The notes: a model not told the origin generated them from the letters alone. A stretch of 64,000 bases of DNA from Clostridia bacterium (GCA_017511265.1 JAFWKV010000001.1:553-64552); one strand, 5' to 3'; positions 15,943-63,340 are shown, numbered from the stretch's first letter. A program made the numbers and translations.

Positions 15943-16161
15943 CTATAATCCTAGCTCCTCCTTTGCTTCCTCAATTGTATATGTTTTAGGATTTTTCTTA
16001 TATTCTTTCATAGCTTTTTCATAGCTTTTTAAATCATACTCATCTTCTATTTTTTCAATGATAGCTTTTCTTATTAAATCTGATAAAGACATATTATTTA
16101 TTTTTGCATAAGATTTTATTAGTTTCTCATCTTCTTCATTTAATCTTACTGAAACTGTCAT
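15943..16161 (-). CDS. Ribbon-helix-helix antitoxin (RelB/DUF6290-like)
   Basis: MTVSVRLNEEDEKLIKSYAKINNMSLSDLIRKAI is an RHH fold signature. RBS GGAGAG precedes the ATG at 16161, and the stop abuts the toxin ATG. Confidence 0.7.
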   Translation of the reverse strand: MTVSVRLNEEDEKLIKSYAKINNMSLSDLIRKAIIEKIEDEYDLKSYEKAMKEYKKNPKTYTIEEAKEELGL

Positions 16162-16277
16162 TTTTATCACTCTCCTTGTAATACAAGGTACTACATTCTC
16201 GTTTCTTTGTCAATAGTTTATTTTATTATTCTACACATTAAATTGTGAATTTATACTTTTAAAAAAATTTAAATGAG

Positions 16278-17535: not shown

Positions 17536-17690
17536 TGCTGTATTTTGGGACGGGGCGACAGGTGATGCCTTGGGGACGGAGGAAAAAGTATCACCTGTTT
17601 AAAATGTTAAATCTAGTTAAAATATAAACAGGTGATACTTTTTCCTCCGTCCCCAAAGCATCACCTGTCGCCCCGTCCCAAAATACAGCA
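17536..17690. repeat. 155-bp modular palindrome (GGGAC-module family)
   Basis: The left arm TGCTGTATTTTGGGACGGGGCGACAGGTGATGCCTTGGGGACGGAGGAAAAAGTATCACCTGTTTA has a near-perfect complement on the right. It starts 2 nt after the dgt-like stop. Confidence 0.9.
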
Positions 17691-19906: not shown

Positions 19907-19939
19907 GTGATACTTTTTCCTCCGTCCCCAAAGTATCAC
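19907..19939. repeat. Solitary GGGGACGGAGG-loop hairpin
   Basis: A 10-bp stem GTGATACTTT/AAAGTATCAC encloses the 13-nt TTCCTCCGTCCCC. The same unit occurs at 52537, 52603, 17.6 kb and 41.1 kb. Confidence 0.75.
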
Positions 19940-19954
19940 TTTATAGCACATAAA

Positions 19955-20302
19955 AAGAGTAAATCTGTAAGCCGGGTTCTGTCGTTTAAAATAGTCATTT
20001 ATCTAGGATATATATTACTATATATCTCAAGCCACGCAGGTTAGAAGTTGCCGAGCAGGCTTAATCTTCAATTTAGGTGTTGCTCCAGATGGGGTTTACA
20101 CAGCCCAATATGTCACCATATTGGCGGTGAGCTCTTACCTCGCCTTTTCACCCTTTCCGTAATCTACGGTGGTTATTTTCTGTTGCACTATCCTTAAGGT
20201 CACCCTCACTAGACGTTATCTAGCATCTTTGCTCTGTGGAGCCCGGACTTTCCTCTCGTAGTATCTTTCGATATTCTACCAGCGACTATTCAATTTACTC
20301 TG
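19955..20302 (-). ncRNA. rnpB: RNase P RNA (bacterial, type B-like)
   Basis: The minus strand contains GAGGAAAGTCCGGGCTCCACAG and, near the 3' end, ACAGAACCCGGCTTA. P1 pairs AGAGTAAAT (20301..20293) with ATTTACTCT (19964..19956). An extended -10 TGTTATAAT sits just upstream. Confidence 0.85.
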
Positions 20303-26149: not shown

Positions 26150-26192
26150 AAAAAGCAAGAGAAAACTTTTTGGGACAGGTCCAAAAAGTTTC
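26150..26192 (-). terminator. Terminator-like hairpin after the GH3 gene
   Basis: On the minus strand, GAAACTTTTTGGAC..GTCCCAAAAAGTTTTC is followed by a U-rich tract. The left arm repeats the last codons of the gene. Confidence 0.55.
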
Positions 26193-26194
26193 CC

Positions 26195-27280
26195 CTAAAA
26201 AGTTTCATCTCGAATTTCTTGTATTTTCTCATTTATGTTTTCAACATCCACGCCATTATAAATTACATCATCAGAAATACTGTATTTCTGTTTTAAATTA
26301 AGAATCCTTTTAGTACTCCTGTTAACTCTATATTCTTTAATCACACCGCTTCTAGCCATATTATACACCTGTTCAATTGCGTTTTTTTCATCCTTAGGAG
26401 TAAATCTAAAAAGAACAATATCACTACCTGAAGTAAAAGCTTGTCTAACTGCTAATTTATAACCATAAATAAACCTAATAGCACGCATCTTCAAATCATC
26501 AGTAATAACAAGTCCTTTAAACTTGAGCTTTTGCCTTAAATATTTACCTATAAACTTTCTAGAAAGAGAAGCGGGTAAGGTTCTTGAAACACTTTTAATA
26601 ACAATATGGCTTACCATAACTGCATCTGCACCATTTCTAATTGCAATTTTAAATGGCATCATATCAACATTTTCAATTTGCTCAATATCCTTTTCTACAA
26701 TGGGTAAAAAAAAGTGAGAATCTTTTTTAGTTATTCCATGTCCTGGAAAGTGTTTTATAACAGAAATTACATTTTTTCGTTGCAATTCTTGCATTGCATC
26801 AATTCCGTACTTAGTTACATCTTTTTTATTTTCGCCAAATGCTCTATCGCCTATAGCATGATTGTCAGAAAAACGCTTAATGTCAAAAACAGGGGCAAAG
26901 TTCATATTTATACCAGAGTCATATAAAATATCACCTATAATGCTATATGCTTTTTTTACAAGCTTTTCGCCACCACTTTTAGCAAGCAAATGGGCAGAAG
27001 GCAAATTCAGTAATTCATTAGGCATTCTATTTACTCTACCACCTTCTTGATCAATAGCAATAAATAATGGAACTTTATTTACTTTATTTAGCTCTTTTAA
27101 ATCCTTAATAAGCTTTAACATTTCTTCATAAGAGTCATAATTTTTTTTATATAAAATAACCCCGCCAACTTTATACTTTAATATTAAATCTTTTACTCTA
27201 TCATTTACATGCTTTCCTTCAAATCCAACCATCATCATCTGACCCAGCTTCTCTTGAAAAGTTAAATCATTTAAATTCAT
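26195..27280 (-). CDS. Glycoside hydrolase family 3 beta-N-acetylhexosaminidase (NagZ-like)
   Basis: AIDQEGGRVNRM and KHFPGHG motifs. Confidence 0.8.
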   Translation of the reverse strand: MNLNDLTFQEKLGQMMMVGFEGKHVNDRVKDLILKYKVGGVILYKKNYDSYEEMLKLIKDLKELNKVNKVPLFIAIDQEGGRVNRMPNELLNLPSAHLLAKSGGEKLVKKAYSIIGDILYDSGINMNFAPVFDIKRFSDNHAIGDRAFGENKKDVTKYGIDAMQELQRKNVISVIKHFPGHGITKKDSHFFLPIVEKDIEQIENVDMMPFKIAIRNGADAVMVSHIVIKSVSRTLPASLSRKFIGKYLRQKLKFKGLVITDDLKMRAIRFIYGYKLAVRQAFTSGSDIVLFRFTPKDEKNAIEQVYNMARSGVIKEYRVNRSTKRILNLKQKYSISDDVIYNGVDVENINEKIQEIRDETF

Positions 27281-32415: not shown

Positions 32416-32437
32416 AAGAAAAAAGGAGTAGTACAAA

Positions 32438-32466
32438 AGGGACGCAAACTTGCGTCCCTACTTTTA
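32438..32466 (+). terminator. Rho-independent terminator of the 121-aa gene
   Basis: Stem AGGGACGCAA/TTGCGTCCCT followed by ACTTTTAT. Confidence 0.65.
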
Positions 32467-32860
32467 TGCTGTCTTTTGGGACGGGGCAAAAAAACATCAG
32501 CCTGCTGTCAATGGGGACGTAGCAATTTGACAACCTGCCTTTGGCTAAGTTCCCTTAATTTTTTATATTAGCGCTTGATTGGAATAAGCATTAGAAATTG
32601 TTTAGCTAGAAAATGAGGGATGTTCACGGTACTCGTGTTGAATTATGAATTATAGAAAAATTTGATTTTTCTATAATGAAGAATGATACGCGAGGGACTG
32701 AGTGAAAGAGGCTCATTTTCTAGCCTTACAATTTCTTTGCGAATGAAATGAACAAGCTAATATAAAAAATTAAGGGAACTTAGCCAAAGGCAGGTTGTCA
32801 AATTGCTACATCCCCATTGACAGCAGGTGATGTTTTTTTGCCCCGTCCCAAAAGACAGCA
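32467..32860. repeat. 394-bp nested (Russian-doll) palindrome of the GGGAC-module family
   Basis: The ~105-bp arms (TGCTGTCTTTTGGGACGGGGCAAAAAAACATCAGCCTGCTGTCAATGGGGACGTAGCAATTTGACAACCTGCCTTTGGCTAAGTTCCCTTAATTTTTTATATTAGC) differ at 2 positions. The core equals the 13.2-kb element family, with a further small palindrome inserted at its centre. The right end abuts the mutS stop. Confidence 0.9.
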
Positions 32861-35473
32861 TCACTTCATTTTTTCTTTCATTCTAACCAATGTGTTTAGT
32901 GCATCAATTGGAGTTAGTGCATTTAAATCAACTTGGTCAATCTCGTGAGCTATTTCAGCAAGTTTATAATTAAACATATCAAATTGTCCTTCAACCTGCT
33001 TCTTATCTTCTTTTTCCTGTTTTTTATCTCTTAAAATACTTTTTCTTTCAAGTGTTCTTAAAATCTCATTTGCCTTTTGAGTAACATCTTTAGGTACTCC
33101 TGCAAGTTTGGCAACATGAATTCCATAACTTTCATCTGTACCACCTTTAAGAATTTTTCTTAAAAATATTATATCTTCTCCCTTTTCCTTAACAGCTATT
33201 TGATAATTTTTTACACCTTCTAATCTATTTTCCAGTTCAGTTAATTCATGATAATGTGTTGCAAATAGTGTTTTTGCTCCACATTTTTCTTTGTTTGCAA
33301 TAAAGTCTGCAACAGCCCATGCAATTGAAAGTCCATCATATGTTGATGTTCCTCTCCCTATTTCATCAAGAATTACTAAGCTATTTGATGTGGCTTCCTT
33401 TAGTATTGATGCAACTTCCATCATTTCTACCATAAATGTACTTTGTCCCATACTCAAGTCATCTGATGCTCCAACCCTAGTAAATATTTTATCTACTGCA
33501 CCTATTTTAGCACTTGATGCTGGTACAAAGCTTCCAACTTGTGCCATTAGTGTAATTAACGCTACTTGCCTCATATATGTGGATTTTCCAGCCATATTAG
33601 GTCCTGTAATTATTGCCAATCTATTTTCATCTTTATCCAAATATGTATCATTTTCAACAAAGCTTCCTGTTGGTATCATCTTCTCAATTACAGGATGCCT
33701 ACCATCTTTAATGTCTATTATTCCATTTTGCTTTACCTCTGGCATACAATAATTCATATCTTCTGCAACTTGTGCAAATGATGTTAATACATCTAGTGTT
33801 GCAACAATTGTACTTGAAGTTTGAAGTCTTTTTATATTTTTAGATATTTCTTCTCTAACCTCTGTAAATGCGTTATATTCTAAGTTTACAACCTTTTCTT
33901 CAGCACCTAATACTTTGTTTTCTATTTCTTTTAATTCTTCTGTTATATATCTTTCAGCATTTGTAAGTGTTTGCTTTCTTATAAATCTAGCTGGAACTTG
34001 TGATAAAAATGATTTAGTAACCTCTATATAATACCCAAATACTTTATTAAAGCCTACTTTCAAGTTCTTTATTCCTGTTTTTTCACGTTCTTCCGCTTCT
34101 ATTTTTATAATCCAATTCTTCCCATCTGTAGTTGCTCTTTTTAATTCATCTATTTCTTCGTCATAGCCAAGCTTTATAATTCCACCTTCTTTTATGCTGA
34201 TAGGTGGTTCATCAACTATTGCTTTTTCAATTAAGTCATGCACATCTTGTAACTCGTCTAAATTTTCATGCAATTCTTTCAAATAATCACTTTTACAGTT
34301 ACTTAATACATTTTTCACAGATGGCAATTTTGCAAGTGAACTTTTAAGCGAAATCATATCTCTTGCATTGGCATTACCATAAGCCATTTTACCTGCCAAA
34401 CGCTCAATATCATAAACTTTTTTTAAGCTATCTATAATATCTCCTCTGATCATAATTTCTTCTTTTAGTTCTTTTACAGCACTTAAACGTTTATTAATTT
34501 CAATAACGTCTATTAGTGGGTCATTAAGCCATCTTCTTAGCATACGTCCGCCCATAGAAGTTGAAGTTTTATCTAATACCCAAAGTAAAGTTCCTTTTTT
34601 GCTCTTATCTCTTAGTTTTTCAGTGATTTCTAGGTTTCTTCTTGCATTTATATCTAAAGACATATATTTTGATATATTGTAAATTGTAATTTTGTTTATA
34701 TGTTCTAGGCTTGTTTTTTGAGTTTGTTTTAAGTATTCTAAAAGTGCATTAATTGAAGCTATAGCAATTGATTTTTCTTCTATATTTTCTATTAGATTAT
34801 TAGCTGGGTCTTGTACAGTGAATTTTTCTTTTAATTTGCTACAATCATCTGTAAAAAAAGTATCTCCAAATTTTGTAACATATATATCAAATCTTTCCTT
34901 TATTTTATCCATTTCTTCTCTGCAATCATACATCATACTGTTTACTACAAGCTCTGCTGGATTAAATCTTGCAATTTCATCTAGTACCATTGCAAAATTA
35001 TTTGTTTGCTTAACTTCACTGCTGTAGAATTCACCTGTTGAAACATCACACAAGCTTATTCCAAAGTATATTCCAGTTTTAAAAATTGACATTATATAGT
35101 TGTTTTTTCTTTCTTCTAGCATATTTGATTCTACAATAGTTCCTGGTGTAACTACTCTTATAACATCTCTTTCCACCATTCCCTTTGTTGTTTTTGGGTC
35201 AGTTAATTGCTCACATATTGCAACTTTATAACCTTTTGCTATAAGTTTTGCAATATAGCTTTCTGCAGCATGGTGTGGCACTCCACACATTGGTGCACGT
35301 TCTGCTTGCCCACAATCTCTACCTGTTAAAGTTATTTCTAATTCTCTTGATGCTGTTAGTGCATCATCAAAAAACATTTCGTAGAAGTCACCTAATCTAT
35401 AAAATAATATACAATCTTCATATTGTTTTTTTGTTTCAAAATATTTTTGCATCATTGGTGAATATTCTGCCAT
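32861..35473 (-). CDS. mutS: DNA mismatch repair protein MutS
   Basis: 870 aa, with the MutS N-terminus TPMMQKY and Walker A GPNMAGKST. Confidence 0.95.
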   Translation of the reverse strand: MAEYSPMMQKYFETKKQYEDCILFYRLGDFYEMFFDDALTASRELEITLTGRDCGQAERAPMCGVPHHAAESYIAKLIAKGYKVAICEQLTDPKTTKGMVERDVIRVVTPGTIVESNMLEERKNNYIMSIFKTGIYFGISLCDVSTGEFYSSEVKQTNNFAMVLDEIARFNPAELVVNSMMYDCREEMDKIKERFDIYVTKFGDTFFTDDCSKLKEKFTVQDPANNLIENIEEKSIAIASINALLEYLKQTQKTSLEHINKITIYNISKYMSLDINARRNLEITEKLRDKSKKGTLLWVLDKTSTSMGGRMLRRWLNDPLIDVIEINKRLSAVKELKEEIMIRGDIIDSLKKVYDIERLAGKMAYGNANARDMISLKSSLAKLPSVKNVLSNCKSDYLKELHENLDELQDVHDLIEKAIVDEPPISIKEGGIIKLGYDEEIDELKRATTDGKNWIIKIEAEEREKTGIKNLKVGFNKVFGYYIEVTKSFLSQVPARFIRKQTLTNAERYITEELKEIENKVLGAEEKVVNLEYNAFTEVREEISKNIKRLQTSSTIVATLDVLTSFAQVAEDMNYCMPEVKQNGIIDIKDGRHPVIEKMIPTGSFVENDTYLDKDENRLAIITGPNMAGKSTYMRQVALITLMAQVGSFVPASSAKIGAVDKIFTRVGASDDLSMGQSTFMVEMMEVASILKEATSNSLVILDEIGRGTSTYDGLSIAWAVADFIANKEKCGAKTLFATHYHELTELENRLEGVKNYQIAVKEKGEDIIFLRKILKGGTDESYGIHVAKLAGVPKDVTQKANEILRTLERKSILRDKKQEKEDKKQVEGQFDMFNYKLAEIAHEIDQVDLNALTPIDALNTLVRMKEKMK

Positions 35474-39721: not shown

Positions 39722-41053
39722 ATGGAAAAGATGAAAATTCAAAAATACGAAACTAATTTTAAAAGAAACCTTTTTTGGAAAGAAAGCACATTAAACACAA
39801 AACAATACACAGAAAAACAAGAAAATAAAGTAATAAATGTTTATCCTGTCATATCTTATCAAGAAATAATAGGCTTTGGTGGAGCTTTTACAGAAGCGGC
39901 AGGCTATGCTTATAGTAAGCTAAGTGATTCAAAAAAAGTTGAACTTATAGATGACTATTTTTCACAAAATGGCTTAAACTATTCAATTGGTAGATTACCT
40001 GTCGGGAGTTGTGACTTTTCTCTTAATTCTTATTCATATTCAAAAAGACCAGATTTGTCTGATTTTAGTATAGAAAGAGATAGAAAATATCTCTTACCTT
40101 TTCTGAAATCTTCACTAGAAAAAAGGCAATTGAAATTATTAGCTTCTCCATGGAGCCCTCCAAGCTTTATGAAATCCAATAAAATGCTAAAATTAGGTGG
40201 TAAGCTTTTAAATAAATATTATCAAACTTGGGCAGATTATTTGGTAAAGTATATACAAGCCTATGAATCTGAAAATGTACCTATAAAATACATAACAGTT
40301 CAAAATGAAGCAAATGCAACTCAAATATGGGAATCTTGTTTGTACTCAGCTGAAGAAGAAGTAAATTTTGCAACAAATTATCTATATTATGGTTTTGTAC
40401 ATAATAATATTGATACTAAAATACTGATATGGGATCATAACAAAGAAAAACTTTTTACAAGAGCTCTATCAGAACTAAGCACAGATTCTGCAAAGCAAGC
40501 TATTTCTGGATTTGCATTTCATTGGTATTCTGGTGACCATTTTGAAAATATTAAATTGACACATGATGCTTTTCCTGATAAGCTTTTATTTCATACAGAA
40601 GGCTGTACAGGCTTTTCTCATTTTAGAAAAGAAGATGAAGTTCAAAATGGCGAAATATATGCTCATGATATTTTAGGTGATTTAAATGCCGGTATAAATG
40701 CCTTTATAGACTGGAATTTAATACTTGATCATAAAGGAGGGCCAAATCATAAGTTAAATTACTGCAATAGTCCAATAATGCTAAATGATGCTAATTCTGA
40801 TTATGTTAAAAATTTAACGTATTATTATATTGGGCATTTTAGTAAATTTATTAAACCTGGTAGCAAACGTATTGCTTTTAGTAGATATGATGATAGAATT
40901 GAAGTAACTGCTTTTAAGAATACTGATGGTTCTATTGCTGTTGTTCTTCTGAATCGTAATAATTGGAACTATGAATATAATTTATGTATAAATGATTTTG
41001 TTATTCATGATAATTTAGATAGTCATGCTATTGTTACTTTGGTAATTAAGTAA
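39722..41053 (+). CDS. Glycoside hydrolase family 30 (glucosylceramidase-like)
   Basis: GFGGAFTEAA, ASPWSPPSFMK and ITVQNE motifs. Confidence 0.85.
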   Translation: MEKMKIQKYETNFKRNLFWKESTLNTKQYTEKQENKVINVYPVISYQEIIGFGGAFTEAAGYAYSKLSDSKKVELIDDYFSQNGLNYSIGRLPVGSCDFSLNSYSYSKRPDLSDFSIERDRKYLLPFLKSSLEKRQLKLLASPWSPPSFMKSNKMLKLGGKLLNKYYQTWADYLVKYIQAYESENVPIKYITVQNEANATQIWESCLYSAEEEVNFATNYLYYGFVHNNIDTKILIWDHNKEKLFTRALSELSTDSAKQAISGFAFHWYSGDHFENIKLTHDAFPDKLLFHTEGCTGFSHFRKEDEVQNGEIYAHDILGDLNAGINAFIDWNLILDHKGGPNHKLNYCNSPIMLNDANSDYVKNLTYYYIGHFSKFIKPGSKRIAFSRYDDRIEVTAFKNTDGSIAVVLLNRNNWNYEYNLCINDFVIHDNLDSHAIVTLVIK

Positions 41054-41214
41054 GTGATGCCTTGGGGACGGAGGAAAAAGAAGCGATGCCTTGGGGACGG
41101 AGGAAAAAGTATCACCTGTTTATATTATAGCTAGAATTTACAGTTTAAACAGGTGATACTTTTTCCTCCGTCCCCAAGGCATCGCTTCTTTTTCCTCCGT
41201 CCCCAAGGCATCAC
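41054..41214. repeat. 161-bp modular palindrome (two GTGATGCCTTGGGGACGGAGG-type modules per arm)
   Basis: It begins the base after the GH30 TAA, and its last base is the first base of the convergent gene's stop codon. It shares its inner module with the 17.5-kb palindrome. Confidence 0.9.
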
Positions 41215-41408
41215 TAATTATGGTCGTCAAATAATAATTTAATTCCCCATAATCCTGACACACCTACAAGTGAATAAACAATCCTACTAAGTATTGACAT
41301 ATCTCCAAACAAAGTTGCAACTAAGTCAAATTTAAATAGTCCTATCAATCCCCAGTTGATTGCACCAATTATAATTAAAGTCAAAGCTGTTTTATCTATA
41401 ATTTTCAT
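41214..41408 (-). CDS. DUF378-family small membrane protein
   Basis: IIGAINWGLIGLFKFDLVATLFG signature. The start at MKIIDK follows RBS GGAGGTG. Confidence 0.75.
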   Translation of the reverse strand: MKIIDKTALTLIIIGAINWGLIGLFKFDLVATLFGDMSILSRIVYSLVGVSGLWGIKLLFDDHN

Positions 41409-41512
41409 TTTATTTTGCACCTCCATATCTTTTATTCATATATATGTTATTTTTTTCAATTTTATTCTTTTTATTCATAAAAAAATAGTATGGATTTATT
41501 ATCCATACCATT

Positions 41513-44137: not shown

Positions 44138-44204
44138 AAGTTATCCTCCATAACTTTTTGGGACGCGTTCCAAAAAGATCCGCGTCCATAAAAGTTTCTA
44201 TTAT

Positions 44205-47200
44205 TTACTGTCCAAAAGCTGAAAAGAATGTACTCAATGCATTTGCTGCATTATTTAGTAATCCGTTATTAATTTGTGTCAGGTAAGTTGTGTAATATGT
44301 TGTTCCATTAATTGTTTCTGTATCATCTTTTCTTTCATAGTTATCTTCTACCTCTGCGATATTTCCATCTACACTACCCAAAACGCCCTTCACAATTCCA
44401 TCATAGAATTTAATTGTTCCAGTATTTATTATACCATAGGTTGTTCCTCTTATTTCAGGTGAGGACATATTCACTGTTCCATCTTTTTTTCCTATTTTAA
44501 CTGTTGAATTAGCTGAATTTGTAATAGCAGCATTTGTAATACTACCTTGAGTATCTAAAATTATTGTTCCATCTTCTATTGTTACGGTTCCACCATTAAA
44601 GTTTTGAATAGTTCCTCTAGGCTCACCTGATGGTGCATTTCCTGTTGTAGTAGAACTTATAGTTGAATTACCTCTTATTTCTACAGTACCTCCATTGTTG
44701 TATACTGCTTGTCTTTCTCCTGTTGATATCATAGTTACTCCATCAATTATTACTGTTCCGCCTGCATAATTGTCAATTGTAGAAGATAATTGTACTACTG
44801 AATTTATAGTTCCATTTGTAAGTTTAATTGTCCCATAATTGTCTATAACTTTACTACTACCATTATTACTTAAAGTATTATTTTGTAGATTTATTATTAT
44901 ATTTTGTCCTGCAGATGTTTTAACATATTCTGTAGAATCCGTTAATATATTAATTGTTACCTCAGTACCATCTTTTGGTACTTGATTAACTGCCTCTTGT
45001 AATGTATTATAAGATACATCATTAATTTCTGCAGTGTCAACTACAGTCCAGTGAGCATAATATGTTACATCTTCATTTATTATTGTATCTTCTGTTATTG
45101 ATTCTCCACCTTCTTTTGATGTATACCATCCATCGCATTGGAATCCTGCTCTGGTTGCTTTTGGTAAGTCTCCTAAAGCAGTTCCACTTTCAACTAGTTT
45201 TGTTCCATTAATTATTTTACCACCATTTGGGTCGAAAGTAACTGTATATGTACTTTTCCAATGTGCATAAAATGTTATATCTCCATCTATTATTGTATTT
45301 TCTGTTATTTTGATTCCACCTTCTGCTGATGTGTACCATCCGTCAAGCATATATCCTGATTTTGTTGCTGTTGGCAATGTTCCTACAGGGTCACCTGGTT
45401 TTACTTTCCTTGTTCCATTAGCTATTGTGCCTCCATTTGGATCAAATGTTACAGTATCTTTTTCTTTTAGATAAACTACGTCATATGTATCACTATCTAT
45501 AGTTTCTGTTTTGTGTGCTATTACATAGTCATCTTCTATATTTTTTAAATGTTGGTCATTATCAGTTGCACTTGTTATTCCCTTTATAACACCATCATAA
45601 AAACTTAAATCTACAGTACTGCTTAAGCCATACTTTTTGCCTTGTATTATAGGAGTATTCATAACCATATTTCCATCTTTTGTTCCTATTGTCAGTGTTG
45701 TTTTACTATTATATAAGCCAGTTCCTGCACTAGATTCTGACCTTATTGTTCCTCCAGTTATTGTCATTTTGCTTTCATTTGATACTGCTATTCCATTATT
45801 TGTTCCATTAGTTGATACTATTGTTCCTCCAGATATTGTAACTGTTCCATTAGTATTATGAACTGTTCCTCTATTTTTGTTAGTTTCTACTGTTGCTTTA
45901 GAACTTAAATATGCATTTCCTGTTATTTCTATGGTTCCTCCTTCATTATATATTGCTTGTCTAGTTCCTGTAGTTATAATGCTTCCGCCACTAATTGTCA
46001 AATTGGCTTTTGATTTATTGTTAATAGCTCCTTGTGTTGTTGATGAGGTTATTGTTCCATTTGAAATTGCAAGAGTTCCAAAGTTATTAATTACAGGATT
46101 TACTCCATTATTACTTATAGTAAAATCTTGTAAATCAAATACAATATTTTTACCTGCAGCTACTTCAAGTTTTTCACTTGTATCTCTTAATAAAATAATT
46201 GTTTTTTGAGGTCCATTAGCAGTTACTGCATTTATAGCAGCTTGTAAAGTACTATAAAATGTCCCCTCAATTTCTGCTTTTTCTGTTTTCCATTGTGCAT
46301 ATAATGTTATATTTCCTAAATTATTTACTTCTTGTTGATATGTATATCTTGTTCCACTTCCATCAGGTTCGGTATTCCATCCCGCAAATGAATAATTTGT
46401 TTTTTGGAATGTATTTTTCCTTAATTTTTCTGTTTTATTGAACGGAATTGTTTGTGGTTCCATTGTTCCTGTTGCACTTGCATCATTTTTATCAAATGTT
46501 ATTGTATATCCTCCATTTGTAAAGTATCCTGGGTTTGATGTGCCCTCATCTATGTGAGCATATGTATAACTTACATTAGATGCATCATATACTGTGCCTG
46601 CTCCACCGACAATGTTAGTTGCACCAATAAACATATCATTACCATTTGCTGAATCCGTTATACCTGTTGTTACAAAATTTGATGATGCATAAATTGTTAT
46701 TAAATCTGTACAACCCTGAAACATATTATTAATTTTTGTTACATTTGTAGTATTAAAATTACTTAAATTTAAAGTCGTTATTCCACTACAACTATAAAAC
46801 ATATATTCCATAGTTGTTACACTGCCAGTATCAAATCCACCTAACTCTATGGTCGTTAAACTGCTACAGTTTTTTAACATTGCTTGCATATTTGTTACCA
46901 TTGATGTATTAAAGCTACTTATATTCAGACTTGTTAAGCCACTACATCCATCAAATATATTTGACATATTTGTTACTTGTGTTGTATCAAAGTTGCTTAA
47001 GTCTAACCCAGTTAGACCACTGCAACCTTGATACATACCCTGCATATTTGTTACACTTGAAGTATTAAAATGATTTACATTTATACTTGTTAAGCTACTA
47101 CAGTTTTGAAACATATTTCCCAAATTTGTAACATTGCTTGTATCAAAATTGCTTACATTTAGTGTTCCAACATTTTGGCAATTTGAAAACATATAGTGCA

Positions 47201-50200
47201 TATCGTTTACATTACTTGTATCAATTTCACTTACATCCAATGTGCTTACATTTTTACAATTATAAAATAGAAATTCCATATCAGTTACTTTGCTTGTGTT
47301 AAGGTTCGATAAGTTTAACGTAGCATTAATACTATTTCCTATATATGCAAATAAATATGCTGAGCTTGAGTTAGCAAATACTCCACCATTTTGTCCTATT
47401 ACTACATCATAGCCATTTGTGTTATCACCAGTTGCCCATAGTAGCACTCCTCCATTACTTTGCTGTGATACGTCCCAACATGTTGTATTATCTACTGTAT
47501 GGCCATCTATTGATGTTGCAAATGATATGCTCTTTATTTTGTCTCTTGTTATGCTTGTACCTAAGAATGTTCCATCTGCTGTAGCAGTTGTGTTTGCTTT
47601 AAGATTTGCTTCTTGCCAATGTGCATAATAGGTTACATCCTGGTTTCCCATTATAGTATTTTCTGATATCTGTTCTCCATTTTCTGTGAACCATCCTAAA
47701 AATTGGTAACCTGTTTTTCTTGCTGTTGGTAATGTTCCAATTCTTGTATCTTCAGCTACTGTTCTTGTATCTTCGCTTGCTGTTCCACCATTTGCATTAA
47801 ATGTTACAGTATAATCTTTGTAGAAGTATTTTGATGTTATTGTTATGCCATCTCCAAGTTTTGATATTGGAACCGCAACTACAGGACGAATTCTTTTACT
47901 ATTTCCATAATAGTTATAACTAACGCTTCCTTTAATTTCAACAAACATTTCATTGCTTTTGTCATTAGCTGAAGGAGAAGATAGCCACCATGCTCCAGTA
48001 CTTGGAGAATATATTGCTTCATCCATTTCAGATGAATATCCTAATCCACTAACATAAAAACTATAGTTTTCTACCTCACCACCTGATGTATTTTTTCCTA
48101 TTTTATATCCTGTTGCATTTTCTTCTACACTACAATCTAATTGTATTTCATGTGTTGCATTATATGATGCAACAAACATTTCTAATGAAGGTGCTCCTAC
48201 TGCCCAAAGTGCATAGTCTGCTTTATAATCATTCCAATTTGTTGTGTCTAATAAAGTTTGCAAACCTTGTATATTACTATTTATATTTGTTCCATCTGAT
48301 TTTAATTCCCATGATGAGTTTTGTGTATATTTTTTGTTTATCTTTTCACCTACTGATGATATTGTAGACGTTCCAAATCCAGGTAAATTGTTTAGAGCAT
48401 TATTTCCAATACTATCAGATATCAAGTATGCATAATTATTATCTGCATAGAACAATCTCCATATTCTATTATCGACTGTGCTATTTCCTGTAGTATAACC
48501 TGTTACTATTTTACCAAAATCACTTGAATATGTTGAATTTACTGTACCTAGCTCTAAATATCCATTTGAAAAGTATCCTGGATTTGATGTACCCCCATCT
48601 ATGTGTGCATATGTGTGGTTTATATGAGATGCATCATATACTGTGCCTGCTCCTCCTACAAGTTTAGTTGAACCAGTAAACATATCTGTACTATTTTCTA
48701 CTGCTGTCGTAACAAAGCTTGATGATGCATATATTGTTGCCAAATTAGAGCAATTAGCAAACATAGTATTCATACTTTTAACTTTTGATGTGTTAAAGCT
48801 ACTTACATCTATTTCACTTAAGGCATAATCATATGCAAACATTCCTTCCATTGTAGTAACATTTGATGTATCAAGTCCACTTACATTCAAACTTGGTAGT
48901 GTTCTGCAATTATAGAACAGATAGCTCATATTTGTCACATTGCTTGTATCAAAGTTTGTTAAATCTATTGTGGCATCTATACTATTTCCTATATATGCAA
49001 ACAAATATGCTGAGCTAGCGTTTGCTACAACACCACCATTCTGTCCGATTACTACTTCATATCCATTTGTGTCATCTCCAGTTGCCCATAGTAAAACACC
49101 ACCATTACTCTGTTTTGAGACATCCCAACATGTTGTATTATCTACTGTGTGTCCATCTATTGAATTTGTAAACGATACTTTCTTTATTTTGTCTCTAGTT
49201 ATGCTTGTTCCAAGGAATGCTCCATTTTCTGTTGCTGTTGTATTTGCTTTTAGGTATGTTCCCCATTGTGCATATAATGTTACTGTTCCATTTTCTGTTG
49301 CAGTTAAATTGATTACTTCTTGTTTATCTAAATAAGTTGTTCCGCTTCCATCAGATGCAGTATTCCAGCATGCAAAAGGATAGTTTGGATGTTGGAATGT
49401 ATTTTGGCTTAAATTCTGTGCTGTATTATATGTAAATGTTTGTGCTTCCATTTCTCCTGTTGCATTTTCGTCATTTTTGTCAAAGTTAACTGTATATTTA
49501 AACGCTTCCCATTGTGCATACAGTGTATGTGCTCCTGTTTGTGTTACAGTTGTATCTGCTGTGATATAGTTAGGATTTTCTCCTGGATTTTGTTCTATTG
49601 TCCAACCTTTAAAGCTATAATTTTCTCTTGTTGGAATTGGTAAGGTTCCATATTTGCTATCATATTCTACTTCTATTTCACTTGGTTCTACTGTTATTCC
49701 GTCTCCTGCATTAAATGTTACTTTAAATTTATTTACTTCCCATTGTGCATACAGTGTATGTGCTTCTGTTTGTGTTACAGTTGTGTCTGCTGTGATATAG
49801 TTAGGATTTTCTCCTGGCTCTTGTTCTATTGTCCAACCTTTAAATCTATAATGTTCTCTTGTTGGGATTGGTAAGGTTCCATATTTTTTACCATATTCTA
49901 CTTCTATTTCACTTGGGTTTATTGTTATTCCGGTTCCTGCATTAAGCGTTACTAAATATTTATTTACCATATTTATAAGAATTGCTATGGTTTTGCCTTT
50001 ATTTTCTTCCTTTACAGTTAAAGTTATTGTATTAGGTGTATATTTATTAGCAACTACAGTAAGAACATTTCCGTTTATCTCTGCATGTATAAATTCATCC
50101 TCATAATTTTTTGAAAAATTGCTACTTTGTGCGGTATTTGCTATTGTATACTCACCTGAATCTTCTCCCATTATGTTTACAGTTCCAGTTTGCCCTTTAG

Positions 50201-51311
50201 ATAATGTTAATTCGGTTACATCTGCATAGATTGATGCTTCTCCAACTGTTAATTTTGCTATTCTTGTTGATAATTCCTTTCTATATGTTTGATTAGTTTG
50301 TACTATTTCACAATAATAATATGTATTATTCATATCCATTGTTGCTTCCGGAATTGTGTAAACAGCATTTGTTGCACCTTCAATTGCTACTTTGTTAGCA
50401 CCATCACTACTTGTGCATTTATACCATTGATATGTAATGCTTCCATTTCCTGTTTCAGCTACATTAAAACTAAATGTTGCTGGTTTTCCTTCGGCTACAA
50501 ATACGTCTTGTAAGTCATCAGCTATTGTCATTCTACTTATTACAACAGTAGTTTGGTTTACAGATTCGTTTCCTGCTGTATCGACAATTTTTACATACCA
50601 AACTCCCTCATTTAATACCTCTATAGTGCAATTTGGTTCTATTGTTTCAGTTTTTGCTATTTTCCAATCAACTTGGTTAACAGATGATCCCTGTCCATAA
50701 TAAATAGTATACTTTTTTATGTCTCCTGTTGTCTCGATATTATTTATATAAAGTTTGTTTTCAATTGATGATAGGTTAAATGATATTCCTGAGATTGGCT
50801 TTTTGTATTCAACATTATATCTATCATCATCCAATCCACTAACAGTCCATATAGTTTTTTCTTTATACTTGATTCCATCTAGAGAAATAACTTTTCTTCG
50901 TTTTACATTAACTAAAAATTCTTGATCTATATTTTTAAATCCCAAGCTTTCTATTGTAGCTTTATCATAATATCTATAATCTTCTTGATCTATAATTTCT
51001 TCTTCTATTCCTTCTAATTGTTTCTTTTCTTCTTTTGCTCCATCGAAGGCCTGCTTTTGTTTGTCTTGTTCTAAATCTTGTAGTGTTCTTCCCAATTGTA
51101 GAACAGAATCATCACCTTTTCTATAATTTTGTTCTAATTCATTTACCTTATCTTGCATCATTTGTAATTCTGTACCACGGGCAGCTAGTCTTGCATTTTC
51201 TATAGAGTCCCTTCCTGCTGTAATTCCTACTCCTGATAAGATTAATAATAATATAATTGTTATTACTAATGCTGCAAGTGTAATACCTTTGTTACTTACT
51301 AAATTGTTCAT
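44205..51311 (-). CDS. Giant (2368 aa) surface protein: pilin-like N-terminal signal, Listeria-Bacteroides (Flg_new) repeats, two BspA/DUF285-type LRR blocks, two beta-helix-like modules
   Basis: The N-terminus NKGITLAALVITIILLLILSG resembles a class III (prepilin) signal. YTVTFNANGG...GYxFxGW...YAxW units are Flg_new repeats. Runs of LxxFDTSNVTNMxxMFxxC are DUF285/BspA LRRs. GT/NG-rich segments look like a parallel beta-helix. Confidence 0.85.
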   Translation of the reverse strand: MNNLVSNKGITLAALVITIILLLILSGVGITAGRDSIENARLAARGTELQMMQDKVNELEQNYRKGDDSVLQLGRTLQDLEQDKQKQAFDGAKEEKKQLEGIEEEIIDQEDYRYYDKATIESLGFKNIDQEFLVNVKRRKVISLDGIKYKEKTIWTVSGLDDDRYNVEYKKPISGISFNLSSIENKLYINNIETTGDIKKYTIYYGQGSSVNQVDWKIAKTETIEPNCTIEVLNEGVWYVKIVDTAGNESVNQTTVVISRMTIADDLQDVFVAEGKPATFSFNVAETGNGSITYQWYKCTSSDGANKVAIEGATNAVYTIPEATMDMNNTYYYCEIVQTNQTYRKELSTRIAKLTVGEASIYADVTELTLSKGQTGTVNIMGEDSGEYTIANTAQSSNFSKNYEDEFIHAEINGNVLTVVANKYTPNTITLTVKEENKGKTIAILINMVNKYLVTLNAGTGITINPSEIEVEYGKKYGTLPIPTREHYRFKGWTIEQEPGENPNYITADTTVTQTEAHTLYAQWEVNKFKVTFNAGDGITVEPSEIEVEYDSKYGTLPIPTRENYSFKGWTIEQNPGENPNYITADTTVTQTGAHTLYAQWEAFKYTVNFDKNDENATGEMEAQTFTYNTAQNLSQNTFQHPNYPFACWNTASDGSGTTYLDKQEVINLTATENGTVTLYAQWGTYLKANTTATENGAFLGTSITRDKIKKVSFTNSIDGHTVDNTTCWDVSKQSNGGVLLWATGDDTNGYEVVIGQNGGVVANASSAYLFAYIGNSIDATIDLTNFDTSNVTNMSYLFYNCRTLPSLNVSGLDTSNVTTMEGMFAYDYALSEIDVSSFNTSKVKSMNTMFANCSNLATIYASSSFVTTAVENSTDMFTGSTKLVGGAGTVYDASHINHTYAHIDGGTSNPGYFSNGYLELGTVNSTYSSDFGKIVTGYTTGNSTVDNRIWRLFYADNNYAYLISDSIGNNALNNLPGFGTSTISSVGEKINKKYTQNSSWELKSDGTNINSNIQGLQTLLDTTNWNDYKADYALWAVGAPSLEMFVASYNATHEIQLDCSVEENATGYKIGKNTSGGEVENYSFYVSGLGYSSEMDEAIYSPSTGAWWLSSPSANDKSNEMFVEIKGSVSYNYYGNSKRIRPVVAVPISKLGDGITITSKYFYKDYTVTFNANGGTASEDTRTVAEDTRIGTLPTARKTGYQFLGWFTENGEQISENTIMGNQDVTYYAHWQEANLKANTTATADGTFLGTSITRDKIKSISFATSIDGHTVDNTTCWDVSQQSNGGVLLWATGDNTNGYDVVIGQNGGVFANSSSAYLFAYIGNSINATLNLSNLNTSKVTDMEFLFYNCKNVSTLDVSEIDTSNVNDMHYMFSNCQNVGTLNVSNFDTSNVTNLGNMFQNCSSLTSINVNHFNTSSVTNMQGMYQGCSGLTGLDLSNFDTTQVTNMSNIFDGCSGLTSLNISSFNTSMVTNMQAMLKNCSSLTTIELGGFDTGSVTTMEYMFYSCSGITTLNLSNFNTTNVTKINNMFQGCTDLITIYASSNFVTTGITDSANGNDMFIGATNIVGGAGTVYDASNVSYTYAHIDEGTSNPGYFTNGGYTITFDKNDASATGTMEPQTIPFNKTEKLRKNTFQKTNYSFAGWNTEPDGSGTRYTYQQEVNNLGNITLYAQWKTEKAEIEGTFYSTLQAAINAVTANGPQKTIILLRDTSEKLEVAAGKNIVFDLQDFTISNNGVNPVINNFGTLAISNGTITSSTTQGAINNKSKANLTISGGSIITTGTRQAIYNEGGTIEITGNAYLSSKATVETNKNRGTVHNTNGTVTISGGTIVSTNGTNNGIAVSNESKMTITGGTIRSESSAGTGLYNSKTTLTIGTKDGNMVMNTPIIQGKKYGLSSTVDLSFYDGVIKGITSATDNDQHLKNIEDDYVIAHKTETIDSDTYDVVYLKEKDTVTFDPNGGTIANGTRKVKPGDPVGTLPTATKSGYMLDGWYTSAEGGIKITENTIIDGDITFYAHWKSTYTVTFDPNGGKIINGTKLVESGTALGDLPKATRAGFQCDGWYTSKEGGESITEDTIINEDVTYYAHWTVVDTAEINDVSYNTLQEAVNQVPKDGTEVTINILTDSTEYVKTSAGQNIIINLQNNTLSNNGSSKVIDNYGTIKLTNGTINSVVQLSSTIDNYAGGTVIIDGVTMISTGERQAVYNNGGTVEIRGNSTISSTTTGNAPSGEPRGTIQNFNGGTVTIEDGTIILDTQGSITNAAITNSANSTVKIGKKDGTVNMSSPEIRGTTYGIINTGTIKFYDGIVKGVLGSVDGNIAEVEDNYERKDDTETINGTTYYTTYLTQINNGLLNNAANALSTFFSAFGQ

Positions 51312-52115: not shown

Positions 52116-52145
52116 GATGTTTTTTGGGACGGGGCAAAAAACATC
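52116..52145. repeat. Solitary GGGAC-family hairpin
   Basis: GATGTTTTTTG-GGACGGGG-CAAAAAACATC. It has the same loop as the unit at 51409 but a different stem word. Confidence 0.65.
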
Positions 52146-52536: not shown

Positions 52537-52633
52537 TGATACTTTTTCCTCCGTCCCCAAAGTATCAGCTTTTGCCTAATTTTTCCATTTTTTATTTCTA
52601 TGTGATACTTTTTCCTCCGTCCCCAAAGTATCA
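52537..52633. repeat. Tandem pair of GGGGACGGAGG-loop hairpins downstream of rsgA
   Basis: TGATACTTT-TTCCTCCGTCCCC-AAAGTATCA occurs at 52537..52567 and 52603..52633, within a ~65-bp tandem duplication. Confidence 0.8.
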
Positions 52634-56731: not shown

Positions 56732-56758
56732 ATTATGTAAGGCGGTGTATTGGAGACA

Positions 56759-56822
56759 GGAAAACTTTTTTAAAACGTCCCCAAAAGTTTTCCACAGTCC
56801 ACCCTGTCCCCAAAAGTTTTCC
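56759..56822. repeat. GGGAC-family hairpin plus half-repeat, overlapping the cotJC stop
   Basis: GGAAAACTTTT-TTAAAACGTCCCC-AAAAGTTTTCC is followed by a second GTCCCCAAAAGTTTTCC. The last base is the first base of the cotJC stop codon. Confidence 0.75.
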
Positions 56823-57398
56823 TAATAAAATTTCTTTGCTGCTAGTCTGTCTTGTACGCCACGTAGTGCTTCGCCAAAACGTTGAAAATGCACCACTTCT
56901 CTTTGTCTTAAATAACGTAATGGGTCTATTACTTCTGGATTGTCTTTACTTAAGTCAATTAATTTTTCATACGTTGCACGTGCTTTTTGTTCTGCTGCTA
57001 GGTCTTCTTGTAAGTTTGCTATTGGATCTCCTTTTGCTGCAATATATGCTGCTGTAAATGGTACTCCTGCTGCTGATACTGGATATACATCTAATCCATG
57101 GTCTGTATAATATGCATCCAAACCAGCTTCTTTTATTTCTTCTATTGTAGCTCCTTTTGTCAATTGGTTTACTATAGTTCCTACCATTTCTAAGTGAGCC
57201 AATTCTTCTGTTCCGGATATCATTTAAAATTGCTTTTGAAGTTTGGTCAGGCATTCCAAATCGTTGAGATAAATACCTTAATGATGCAGCAAGTTCTCCG
57301 TCTGGGCCACCATATTGAGAAATAATATTTTTAGCAAGTTTCAAGTCTTTACACTTTATATTTATTGGGTATTGTAGCATTTTGTTATAAGTCCACAT
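56822..57398 (-). pseudogene. cotJC: Manganese-catalase-family spore coat protein CotJC, frameshifted
   Basis: The N-terminal ORF reads MWTYNKMLQYPINIK...YGGPDGELAASLRYLSQRFGMPD...ILNDI. The rest, GTEELAHLEM...AAEQKARATYE..., is in the ORF 56822..57223. An extra C in GATATC-C-GGAACA (about 57216) separates them. Confidence 0.85.
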
Positions 57399-57438: not shown

Positions 57439-59031
57439 TTAGGAACATATATTAAATTTATATTTTATATTAATATTTCTATCGTCTATGATTATTTTAT
57501 CTATTAATTTAAATAATAAGCTTTTACTTGCATCATTTATTTCATTAAAGCTCATGATTTTTTTCATATTTTCTTTAAATTCATTATTTCCAATAATTAT
57601 TTCTTTATCTGTTTTATCACATTCTTGTTTATATATTTCCATTTTTCTTTCATATTCTTTCTTTTGTTTTTCATATTTTTTTACTAATACATTAAATGTA
57701 TCATTAGATATTACCTCTGATATTTTATCTTCATATAAATTACTTATAATCTTATTTAATTCTTCCATTTTTTTAGTTAGTTTTATTAATTCAGATTTTT
57801 TATTATTTTTTTTTATTCTATCCTTGTTATAGTCTAGTTGTTCTATGTTTAAATATTTTTTTATATTACTTTTTATAGCTTCTGTTACTAATCTGATAAG
57901 TTCATCTTCTCTTATATGGACATTACTACAGAATTTATTACCATATTTTTTGTATCTTGAACAAATACATCTAAAATTTTTTCCATGATTTTTATTATAT
58001 GTTATTCTACTGCCACATTTGCAAAATACTAGTCCTGTAAGAAGATGCTTTTCTTTGTTTGAATAATTCCATTCATTAGTTTGTTTATTCAGCATTTCTT
58101 GTACTATGTCAAAGTCAGCTCTTTCAATTATAGCTTTATGATTATCGAGAACAATAATTTGATTTTCTGTTGGAACTTTTGACGTTCTTTTTATCTTGTA
58201 ATTTATCTTTTTGTTTTTTAGTTGAACTAAATCTCCAGCATAAATTCTATCTCTTAATATTTTATTTATTACAGTAGAATTCCATTGGTATGTTGTGTGC
58301 TTTTTGCAATTAGGATTAAAATAATTTGTGGTTTCTTCTTTGTATTTAAGTGGTGTTATTATTCCCATATCGTTAAATATATTTGCTATTTGCGTTTTGC
58401 TTTTTCCTTTTTTATACAATCTAAAAATCATTTTAACATTTTCTGATACATTTTCATCAACTATAATTTTGTTTTTATTATTATTGTCTTTTTTGTATCC
58501 ATATGGTAAAAATGCTTTTATACAATCTCCACATTTTGCTTTTGTTTCTATTGCTGACCTGACTTTGTTTGATATGTCTTTTGCGTACATATCATTTATA
58601 ACAGATTTAAACGGTGTCATATCATTATTACTGTTATATTGATCATATGTATCAATATTATCGTTTACTGCTATATATCTTACCATTTTTGTTGGAAAAT
58701 ATTTTTCTACATACATGCCAACTCCAATATGGTCTCTTCCAAGTCTTGAAAGGTCTTTTGTTATTACAAGGTTTACTAACCCTCTTTCTATGTCGTTTAA
58801 TAAATTCTGAAATCCTGGTCTTTCAAAATTAGTACCTGTATATCCATCATCATAATAAACATTTGCTAATGTCCATTTTTGTTCTTTAACTATAGATTTT
58901 AAAAACTTAATTTGGTTTTCTATGCTCTCTGATATGTTTTTGTATTTTTCTTCTTTTTCGTCTTCTTTTGAAAGTCTCGCATATATTGCTACTTTCCATT
59001 TTATATTATAGTCATTATATAACCTGTTCAT
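57439..59031 (-). CDS. Large serine recombinase (SpoIVCA/TnpX/phage-integrase type)
   Basis: Resolvase catalytic domain (VAIYARLSKED, SIENQ, DDGYTGTNFERPGF, KDLSRLGRD), followed by recombinase and zinc-ribbon (CKCGS...C.CSRY) domains and a coiled-coil tail. Confidence 0.9.
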   Translation of the reverse strand: MNRLYNDYNIKWKVAIYARLSKEDEKEEKYKNISESIENQIKFLKSIVKEQKWTLANVYYDDGYTGTNFERPGFQNLLNDIERGLVNLVITKDLSRLGRDHIGVGMYVEKYFPTKMVRYIAVNDNIDTYDQYNSNNDMTPFKSVINDMYAKDISNKVRSAIETKAKCGDCIKAFLPYGYKKDNNNKNKIIVDENVSENVKMIFRLYKKGKSKTQIANIFNDMGIITPLKYKEETTNYFNPNCKKHTTYQWNSTVINKILRDRIYAGDLVQLKNKKINYKIKRTSKVPTENQIIVLDNHKAIIERADFDIVQEMLNKQTNEWNYSNKEKHLLTGLVFCKCGSRITYNKNHGKNFRCICSRYKKYGNKFCSNVHIREDELIRLVTEAIKSNIKKYLNIEQLDYNKDRIKKNNKKSELIKLTKKMEELNKIISNLYEDKISEVISNDTFNVLVKKYEKQKKEYERKMEIYKQECDKTDKEIIIGNNEFKENMKKIMSFNEINDASKSLLFKLIDKIIIDDRNINIKYKFNICS

Positions 59032-63070: not shown

Positions 63071-63304
63071 AAAAGTGATGCCTTAGCTGTCTTTTGGGAC
63101 GGTGTTGTCAATGGGGAAGGAGCTGTCAATGGGGACGTGCTTAAATGAAAACGTGTCAATGGGGACGGGTTTAAATGACACACATTAAAAATGTGTGTCA
63201 TTTAAGCCCGTCCCCATTGACACGTTTTCATTTAAGCACGTCCCCATTGACAGCTCCTTCCCCATTGACAACACCGTCCCAAAAGACAGCTAAGGCATCA
63301 CTTT
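63071..63304. repeat. 234-bp near-perfect palindrome with three TGTCAATGGGGA(A/C)G modules per arm
   Basis: The ~115-bp arms differ at one position, and the centre is CACATTAAAAATGTG. The outer shell reuses GTGATGCC and CTGTCTTTTGGGACGG words seen elsewhere. Confidence 0.9.
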
Positions 63305-63340
63305 TCCTTAAGTTATTATTCTCTGATATAATTTCTCTTT

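Follow-up and report, generated by a model that had tools for sequence, protein, structure and literature searches.

Repetitive extragenic palindromic (REP) sequences, the REP doublets called REPINs, the bacterial interspersed mosaic elements (BIMEs) and the REP-associated tyrosine transposases (RAYTs) have, to our knowledge, been studied almost only in Proteobacteria, where REPINs and RAYTs have been argued to be long-lived, vertically inherited partners in the chromosome that shape transcription termination and mRNA stability. Here we describe a palindrome at positions 41053-41215 of a 64,000-nt stretch of DNA from a Clostridia bacterium (GCA_017511265.1, JAFWKV010000001.1:553-64552); the whole stretch is called the window, its positions are counted from its first letter, and L-numbers denote comparison loci. 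The palindrome fills the gap between two convergent genes, and we consider it rather likely to be a REPIN/BIME-like cluster of four REP-like modules spread by a RAYT, which probably also acts as a two-way terminator.

In Pseudomonas and Enterobacteria, REPIN/BIME-RAYT systems comprise short extragenic hairpin units in many copies, located mostly downstream of genes and in convergent gaps and arranged either as inverted doublets (about 100 bp, the arms conserved and the spacer variable) or as clusters of alternating units, and a chromosomal RAYT-type gene that keeps a conserved position and is flanked by inverted units (REPIN is used here as defined in bioRxiv 10.1101/2021.07.10.451892). Each of these features has a counterpart in the material presented below, the flanked transposase gene being found in other genomes. 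The differences concern the host, here an uncultured low-GC Clostridia bacterium; the foot of the module, which is GTGATG or (A)TGAT, GTAG being absent; the part that is conserved, a GC-rich stem in classical REPs whereas here it is a 13-nt G-rich loop on a variable AT-rich stem; the size of the palindromes, which reach 160-400 bp with an arm symmetry of 96-100%; and the transposases of other Clostridia, which carry a C-terminal extension of about 100 aa. The element is a variant of the REP/RAYT design rather than a classical REP.

Firmicutes are not mentioned in the founding REP and RAYT papers. Bertels et al. 2017 (PMC5581495) placed Group 1 RAYTs in Clostridia too, with abundant repeats tied to Groups 2 and 3 alone. 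Di Nocera et al. 2013 (PMC3733652) described TIRtrons, or TIRYTs, RAYT-like genes flanked by inverted repeats that share GGGGWSAS, some of these repeats forming moderately abundant families present as dimers or clusters. The TIRtrons are the closest precedent; no Firmicutes are listed in that paper, and its searched text holds no sequence string with GGGAC or GTCCC.

The palindrome was delimited by a repeat finder and folded as RNA, and the genes beside it were identified by open reading frames (ORFs) and Pfam. The parts of the locus are as follows.

39722-41053, plus strand: GH30 glycoside hydrolase gene, stop codon TAA at 41051-41053.
41053-41215, no strand: palindrome formed by four REP-like modules, one pair and one inverted pair, with a unique centre between them.
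41054-41080, plus strand: outer left module A1, GTGATGCCTTGGGGACGGAGGAAAAAG, a half-module without its own 3' closing arm.
41083-41115, plus strand: inner left module A2, GCGATGCCTTGGGGACGGAGGAAAAAGTATCAC.
41104-41164, no strand: core hairpin region, including A5 (41104-41108) and T5 (41160-41164).
41153-41185, minus strand: inner right module A2', the reverse complement of A2.
41188-41214, minus strand: outer right module A1', whose foot abuts and overlaps the DUF378 stop codon.
41214-41426, minus strand: DUF378 membrane protein gene, stop codon TAG running from 41216 to 41214.

A first-pass annotation of the window had set the palindrome at 41054-41214. It is real and gains one further complementary base at each end: the repeat finder gives arms 41053-41129 and 41139-41215, each of 77 nt, 96% complementary and 9 nt apart. 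The element lies flush against the stop codons of both genes, as had been stated, and the 160-nt gap between the genes (41054-41213) lies entirely within the palindrome, with zero spacer. Position 41214 does belong to the DUF378 stop codon, not as the first base that it was taken for but as the third base as read, which is the lowest in plus-strand coordinates. On the minus strand the DUF378 gene ends AAT TAG TGA TGC, so that TGA provides a second in-frame stop after TAG. The two module copies that had been recognized in each arm are tandem 29-nt units, 97% identical; their variable base, however, had been misplaced, (G/A)TGATGCC being actually G[T/C]GATGCC. The proposed long hairpin is borne out by folding on both strands: RNA of the plus strand is predicted to form a single long hairpin at -144.8 kcal/mol (z = -21.1) and RNA of the minus strand another at -143.1 kcal/mol (z = -25.3), and none of 200 shuffles folds as well. 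In the middle, a core hairpin (41109-41159) with the 14-bp stem GTATCACCTGTTTA / TAAACAGGTGATAC (-18.8 kcal/mol) surrounds a non-palindromic spacer at about 41123-41145.

Such a structure could arise as an assembly artefact, through a chimeric fold-back join, and the short-read contigs of this species in fact all break inside the element. Breaks are, however, expected at repeats, and three short metagenome contigs carrying exactly the window's GH30/DUF378 proteins (L077-L079) speak against a join: L077 and L078 enter the element from GH30 and L079 from DUF378, the latter running through the right arm into the centre, and their sequence is identical to that of the window. Because independent assemblies read the same sequence from both sides, agreeing on both arms and most of the centre, the element is not an artefact of the window's assembly. 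Three more palindromes of the same grammar in the window count against the artefact too, and we give it a negligible probability.

The first-pass annotation had treated the palindrome as a property of this locus, which is not borne out: modules are dispersed through the window, where at least three other palindromes are built alike. The 25-mer GATGCCTTGGGGACGGAGGAAAAAG has nine copies in the window at up to 3 mismatches, 0 being expected; for GGGGACG the count is 15, with 0.23 expected; and a census gave 25 T-prefixed related (GGGACG) modules at 12 intergenic sites, that is, 3.9 per 10 kb. The motif that defines the family is the G-rich GGGGACGG, present in the modules of the 41053-41215 palindrome as GGGGACGGAGGAA; the A-type module, of about 26 nt, can be written (G)TGAT-nnn-TT-GGGGACGGAGG-AAAAAG. 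Four types of module are distinguished.

Type A: (G)TGAT-nnn-TT-GGGGACGGAGGAA-AAAG..., in the form GTGATRCYTTGGGGACGGAGG.
Type B: GCTGTMTTTTGGGACGGGG, in the form GCTGTMTTTTGGGACGG.
Type C: TGTCAATGGGGACG.
Type D: GGAAAACTTTTGGGGACG.

In modules that stand alone the motif is the 13-nt loop of a hairpin whose AT-rich stem of 8-10 bp varies in sequence; the single modules folded have stems of 9-10 bp (-8 to -10.9 kcal/mol), and the closed variants carry differing stems. The TIRtron motif is fully fitted by GGGGACAG (window position 56805, L093-L095, L141 and L162) and also by GGGGACAC, whereas most modules, with GGGGACGG, agree with it at 7 of 8 positions and have G for A at position 7. The CGTC-tagged REPs, which have an unpaired terminal tag, a stem of 8-9 bp and a loop of 4-5 nt, were considered and rejected, CGTC lying here inside the 13-nt loop (CCTCCGTCCCC). 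A full-text literature search with the motif strings returned only unrelated primer matches, and one for RAYTs in Clostridia gave for the most part papers on other subjects.

The other members of the family in the window are the following.

17536-17690, no strand: sister palindrome E1, 66-nt arms, 98% complementary.
19907-19939, minus strand: single closed A hairpin GTGATACTTT-GGGGACGGAGGAA-AAAGTATCAC, -10.9 kcal/mol, 12 nt downstream of the RNase P RNA gene.
26158-26196, plus strand: single related module AAACTTTTTGGGACAGGTCCAAAAAGTTT, adjoining the stop of the gene at 26195-27280.
32466-32861, no strand: composite palindrome E4, about 400 bp, of B and C modules, outer 34-nt arms 100% complementary.
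44154-44177, plus strand: short related palindrome CTTTTTGGGACG/CGTTCCAAAAAG, between two minus-strand genes.
52116-52145, plus strand: single B-like hairpin GATGTTTTTT-GGGACGGGGC-AAAAAACATC, upstream of rpe.
52537-52633, minus strand: a pair of single A hairpins, 52537-52567 and 52603-52633, in the same orientation, between rsgA and rpe.
56758-56850, minus strand: two D-type modules (GGAAAACTTTTGGGGACAGGG, GGAAAACTTTTGGGGACGTTTTAAAAAAGTTTTCC), directly after the TAG of the Mn-catalase (CotJC-like) gene.
63071-63305, no strand: largest member E3, a palindrome of 235 bp whose 116-nt arms are 99% complementary and 3 nt apart.

The sister palindrome E1 lies in a convergent gap between HD hydrolase and methyltransferase genes. 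An outer pair of B modules (TGCTGTATTTTGGGACGGGGCGACAG) surrounds the same A-spacer-A core, and the core at 41081-41187 is about 90% identical to 17560-17666, in opposite orientation, over about 103-107 nt; the spacer is included, that of the 41053-41215 palindrome being homologous, reversed, to the spacer at 17588-17638. This identity indicates that the whole doublet was copied as a unit, and the shared core is wrapped in different outer modules at the two sites, A1 at 41054-41214 and B at 17536-17690. E3, located between a sulfatase-like fragment and cotJA, has in each arm GTGATGCCTTA, one B module and three C modules. Bacteria do not usually maintain such large and perfect palindromes stably.

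Evolution in place of a two-way intrinsic terminator, by local internal duplication and with no mobile element, would explain the A5 and T5 flanks of the core and also the hairpins that relatives hold in the gap 3' of GH30, canonical in L084 and folded end to end in L080. It does not explain why identical 25-29-nt modules and the approximately 90% identical 107-nt core recur at unlinked loci of the window, nor why the same modules flank transposase genes in other genomes. Given dispersal and transposase flanking, local evolution cannot yield the family; dispersal thus largely refutes this origin, and we consider it very improbable.

A conventional miniature inverted-repeat transposable element, that is, a deletion derivative of a DDE insertion sequence moved by cut-and-paste through terminal inverted repeats (GTGATGCCTTGGGGACGG ends), would likewise be dispersed between genes and would have a long inverted repeat with a short unique centre, and TAA stands on both sides of the 41054-41214 copy. 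The copies at 17536, 32466 and 63071 have, however, no direct repeat at their ends, so that there is no consistent target-site duplication; modules occur singly and in direct pairs as well, no copy examined has a DDE transposase gene adjoining it, and the only enzyme found consistently beside the modules is a Y1/HUH protein. We judge this origin even less probable than evolution in place. A reading of the TGTC... modules as the multi-site ends of a Tn7/Mu-like element was rejected, there being no direct repeat at the ends and no adjoining DDE-type transposase gene. Among the Pfam-annotated genes beside the other palindromes (mutS, cotJA/B, the sulfatase fragment, an NFACT protein and others) there is no transposase.

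The evidence for an enzyme comes from other genomes. In L005, a Clostridia metagenome-assembled genome (MAG), a 253-aa ORF encodes a Y1_Tnp protein (Pfam E 3.5e-13), with a AATGATTTTGGGGACGGAGGAAAAAGTCATT hairpin about 90 nt upstream of the gene and an inverted copy just downstream. This protein has 1615 homologues at E <= 1e-10, many of them known only from contigs of 0.9-1.5 kb, a length that would fit breaks at flanking repeats. Inverted hairpin flanks are found also at L087/88, L089/90, both L091/92 paralogues, L173 and L174-176, hence in all seven gene lineages examined, which represent every homologue placed on a longer contig. The loop subtype tracks the lineage or paralogue of the transposase, for example GGGGTCGGAGACAA in L089 and GGGGACGTTTCC for the second L091 paralogue. 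Across several lineages the gene order is ABC-F, sometimes dCMP deaminase, the Y1 gene and Tex, and such constant neighbours are expected of a single-copy, vertically inherited gene. DUF378 too occurs in this neighbourhood, before ABC-F (L005, L087-L090, L173-L176).

The Y1 proteins, of about 250 aa, score 72-82 bits with the NCBIfam model 'REP-associated tyrosine transposase' (cut-off 80), against no more than 28 bits with the IS200 model, and their only relative in PDB is the E. coli TnpA-REP, 4ER8. The RAYT profile covers about 146 residues, and a conserved C-terminal extension of about 100 aa follows the Y1 domain. The HUH histidines and the tyrosine of a Y-I-H-x-N-P motif are invariant in 25 sequences; the tyrosine may be the catalytic residue. 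The IS200/IS605 elements share with this system the Y1 HUH transposase superfamily, with a Pfam Y1_Tnp match, and the use of single-strand hairpins, subterminal in their case; they differ in that the proteins described here fit the RAYT profile far better than that of IS200, that the gene keeps its neighbours (ABC-F upstream, Tex downstream) and is not scattered in many copies, and that what multiplies is the short modules and not the gene.

An alignment of 25 of these proteins led to 80 metagenomic RAYT loci (29-53% identity, GC content 24 to 64%), at which the motif was distributed as follows.

Upstream of the gene, plus strand: 61 of 73 loci.
Downstream of the gene, minus strand: 63 of 71 loci.
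On both sides: 48 of 64 loci.
In control windows of 300 nt: 44 of 491 (9%).

When the best inverted repeat spanning each gene was sought without bias, most loci with enough flank gave hairpins with a GGGGACGG or GGGGACAG loop; examples are TGTCAATGGGGACGGACCTTTTTGACA and TGTCAATGGGGACGG, both corresponding to the window's C module, the B-like GCCAAAAGGGACGGGGAATTTTGGC, and GGATCACGGGGACGGTTCTCGTGATCC. A perfect stem of at least 6 bp closes the motif at 53% of the loci; exchanging 5' and 3' flanks among loci lowers this figure to 14%. In all, 30 distinct stem sequences were found. Since such diverse stems stay complementary, the conserved feature is the loop, and the stems co-vary.

Conservation of the loop might also mean that the modules are chiefly functional RNA or protein-binding sites under selection (for instance a GGAGG/CCUCC element that affects ribosome binding, a target of an RNase or a binding site of a nucleoid protein), the association with transposases being secondary. 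The loop GGGGACGGAGGAA is in fact kept from low-GC Clostridia to 60%-GC Collinsella while the stems differ, it contains a Shine-Dalgarno-like GGAGG, and many copies lie at the 3' ends of transcripts. Yet single modules are found in both orientations relative to local transcription, five against three, so that no RNA strand is favoured; the modules match no Rfam family at the gathering score; and the dependence of loop subtype on transposase paralogue is what would be expected of a recognition site for the enzyme. We regard this explanation as unlikely, though less so than the others considered. With Rfam 15 at the gathering score, the window's sole matches are the RNase P RNA and a tRNA, and the element gives nothing. 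At E <= 10 the element shows sub-threshold matches to microRNA precursors, typical noise for a long hairpin, and a weak one to 3' VR-RNA (E 0.05); ten other module-bearing loci have no match. The RNase P RNA gene itself (19952-20301, minus strand, 298 bits) is followed 12 nt past its 3' end by the A hairpin at 19907-19939, with no T-tract, and this hairpin is possibly a 3'-end or processing signal for rnpB.

The origin that we favour for the palindrome remains the cluster of RAYT-spread modules. The structure of the element, the dispersal in the window, the association with RAYTs in other genomes and the turnover of hairpins at the orthologous site are observed here, whereas we infer, by analogy with those genomes, a matching RAYT in this organism and the route of mobilisation. 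Each arm would hold two modules around a REPIN-like core of about 103-107 bp (module, spacer of about 23 nt, inverted module). Most likely, modules and doublets were spread by a RAYT-type Y1/HUH enzyme acting on single-stranded hairpin DNA, and the larger palindromes were probably built when one symmetric unit inserted into the centre of another; in this case the core doublet would be nested in an outer A1/A1' pair at our locus and in a B/B' pair at 17536-17690. Nested insertion is suggested because the composite palindromes have a layered structure. Further inverted repeats are present in the centre of E4, of about 180 nt (32573-32755), and a plain terminator with a GGGACGC stem lies just to its left (32436-32459). 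Once placed, the element would probably do the job of an ordinary hairpin terminator, as after GH30 in L084: the 14-bp core stem with A5 and T5 would end transcripts coming from either side, the roughly 75-bp duplex would shield both mRNA 3' ends from exonucleases, and the modules would tolerate, and sometimes supply, a stop codon by means of the TGA in the GTGATG foot.

The close fit between modules and stop codons is in fact found repeatedly. The mutS stop codon is the TGA inside the right-hand GTGATGC foot of E4, a D module immediately follows the Mn-catalase TAG, and E1 starts 1 nt past the TAA of the HD gene. In three lineages the ABC-F gene beside the transposase takes its stop from the TGA of aTGAttttGGGG, and several metagenomic loci read TAG followed at once by GGGACG. 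Altogether the stop codon lies at most 12 nt from the G-run in 25 of 70 pairs of module and ORF end, a descriptive count with no formal null model behind it. The flush fit is a property of the repeat family and is not bespoke to 41054-41214; it could be due to an insertion preference or to the survival of harmless insertions in a compact genome.

Comparison of orthologous loci, which the first-pass annotation had proposed as a check, gave a divided answer. Within the species the element is kept exactly, the contigs L077-L079 all carrying its start, whereas the relatives L080, L083 and L084 carry other structures. In L083 (GH30 87% identical) a degenerate module starts in the stop codon, AAG TGA TGA TTT TGA GG, and the contig ends 29 nt beyond it, the remainder of the gap being unread. 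In L080 (GH30 86% identical) a different GGGACG palindrome folds across the whole 113-nt gap, and in L084 (GH30 78% identical) there are a canonical terminator with A-tract, stem and T-tract, AAAAACGGGTTCC...GGAACCCGTTTTT, and an extra gene. A hairpin directly 3' of GH30 thus recurs in these three relatives while its sequence turns over, and in the species of the window the repeat family supplies it. The density of modules is 3.9 per 10 kb in the window against 1.9 and 0.9 in the loci of the relatives.

Like Rho-independent two-way terminators, of which L084 has a canonical one, the element presents an A-tract, a stem and a T-tract between convergent genes; it differs from them in that its stem, which lies within a duplex of about 75 bp, belongs to a dispersed repeat, and that its role in termination is predicted. 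Judged by its sequence, the core with its A5 and T5 flanks has the shape of a two-way intrinsic terminator, and the element probably ends transcription of both the GH30 and the DUF378 gene. The long duplex would protect against 3' exonucleases and may be cut by RNase III, and a role at the RNA level at the 3' ends of both convergent transcripts is plausible.

Several points weigh against this account of the element. As to termination, the core stem is GC-poor and a simple terminator scan made no call on the core, because its loop exceeds the limit of the scan. As to the modules, none of the four in the palindrome closes locally with a perfect stem: in the inner ones the pairing of GCGATGCCTT and AAAGTATCAC contains, by inspection, two mismatches and one wobble, and the outer ones, A1 and A1', lack their own 3' partner. 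For these four modules, the series of small hairpins that the first-pass annotation had offered as an alternative to the long one is consequently weak. Neither the GTAG tag nor the GC-rich stem of classical REPs is present in the family, and the near-perfect symmetry of palindromes of 160-235 bp is not accounted for by transposition alone. As to the enzyme, a tblastn search with two RAYTs found no Y1 transposase gene in the 64-kb window, and the modules of the Clostridia with flanked RAYTs differ in stem from those of the window, so that the link to an enzyme is one of analogy. The exact module variant of the window is absent from the genome and metagenome collections searched, and the same-species contigs and relatives examined showed neither an empty site nor an excision product nor a strain polymorphism.

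A metagenome scan with the window-specific GATRCYTTGGGGACGGAGGAAAAAG gave 0 matches, and two look-ups for a rumen RAYT with the window's stem variant (P0153, P0128) led to flanked RAYTs, but with ATGATTTT stems; four low-GC Clostridia MAGs, L005 among them, carry (A)ATGATTTT versions of the hairpin. An exact 19-mer scan over one genome per species revealed no multi-copy genome of low GC content, which means that this set lacks either the source species or its variant of the repeat. A scan of viral contigs gave 0 matches and hence no sign of phage carriage.

The 19-mer is present in Collinsella (60% GC), within a conserved 26-mer, TGATCCCTTGGGGACGGAGGAAAAAG; in some copies GGGATCA closes this 26-mer into a hairpin of the same shape but with another stem. 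These copies (among L001-L076; for example L006 5060-5078 and 7293-7311, and L014, oriented, 4232) lie mostly just past a stop codon, and the next feature after the core is then a GC-rich terminator hairpin unrelated to it; a C-type palindrome (GTCATTGGGGACG...) is present as well in one context. An AT-rich motif in a GC-rich genome of this kind represents conservation across phyla. No transposase gene is present in the 8-kb loci of the Collinsella copies, and tblastn with the two RAYTs over L001-L086 found none beside them. In an Oceanispirochaeta MAG (L052, 6560-6700), a tandem array of four GGACGGAGGAAGAAAATA units and one full motif stands upstream of a gene for a 163-aa Y1_Tnp protein (Pfam E 9.6e-15).

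Some other features of the window were recorded. The Mn-catalase (CotJC-like) region at 56822-57398, minus strand, consists of two overlapping ORFs that match Pfam positions 1-64 and 63-197, and a frameshift, pseudogene or sequencing error near 57220 could account for the split. The cotJ operon is adjoined by a large serine recombinase gene (57439-59031, minus strand, with Resolvase, Recombinase and Zn-ribbon domains), which could mark a prophage or an element excised in sporulation. A ParE-toxin/antitoxin pair at 15677-16197 is 79% identical to L080 193-716, where its neighbourhood is different, and a very long ORF of 2368 aa occupies 44205-51311 on the minus strand.

For the palindrome at 41054-41214 alone the conclusion is modest: its exact fit between two genes is habitual in the repeat family. 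The modules interrupt short-read assemblies of these organisms, the contigs with the exact proteins of the window breaking inside the element, and gene callers may put stop codons within repeat DNA. A broader reading, which we put forward as a tentative possibility, is that hairpins with a GGGGACGG loop and Y1 transposases form a widespread and undescribed REPIN-RAYT-like system, ranging over gut Clostridia, the actinobacterium Collinsella and many other anaerobes, in which recognition would be based on a conserved loop instead of a tagged stem. The modules would then be portable cassettes, 'stop codon plus two-way terminator', that insert flush against or into the last codons of genes and replace native terminators, and nested insertion would lead to near-perfect palindromes of 160-400 bp that the host tolerates. 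The shared core of 19-26 nt in Collinsella, at 60% GC, offers a testable case of a Y1 enzyme that reads the loop of a hairpin, and a dense family with another recognition layout in low-GC uncultured gut Clostridia would widen the present picture of REPIN-RAYT systems.

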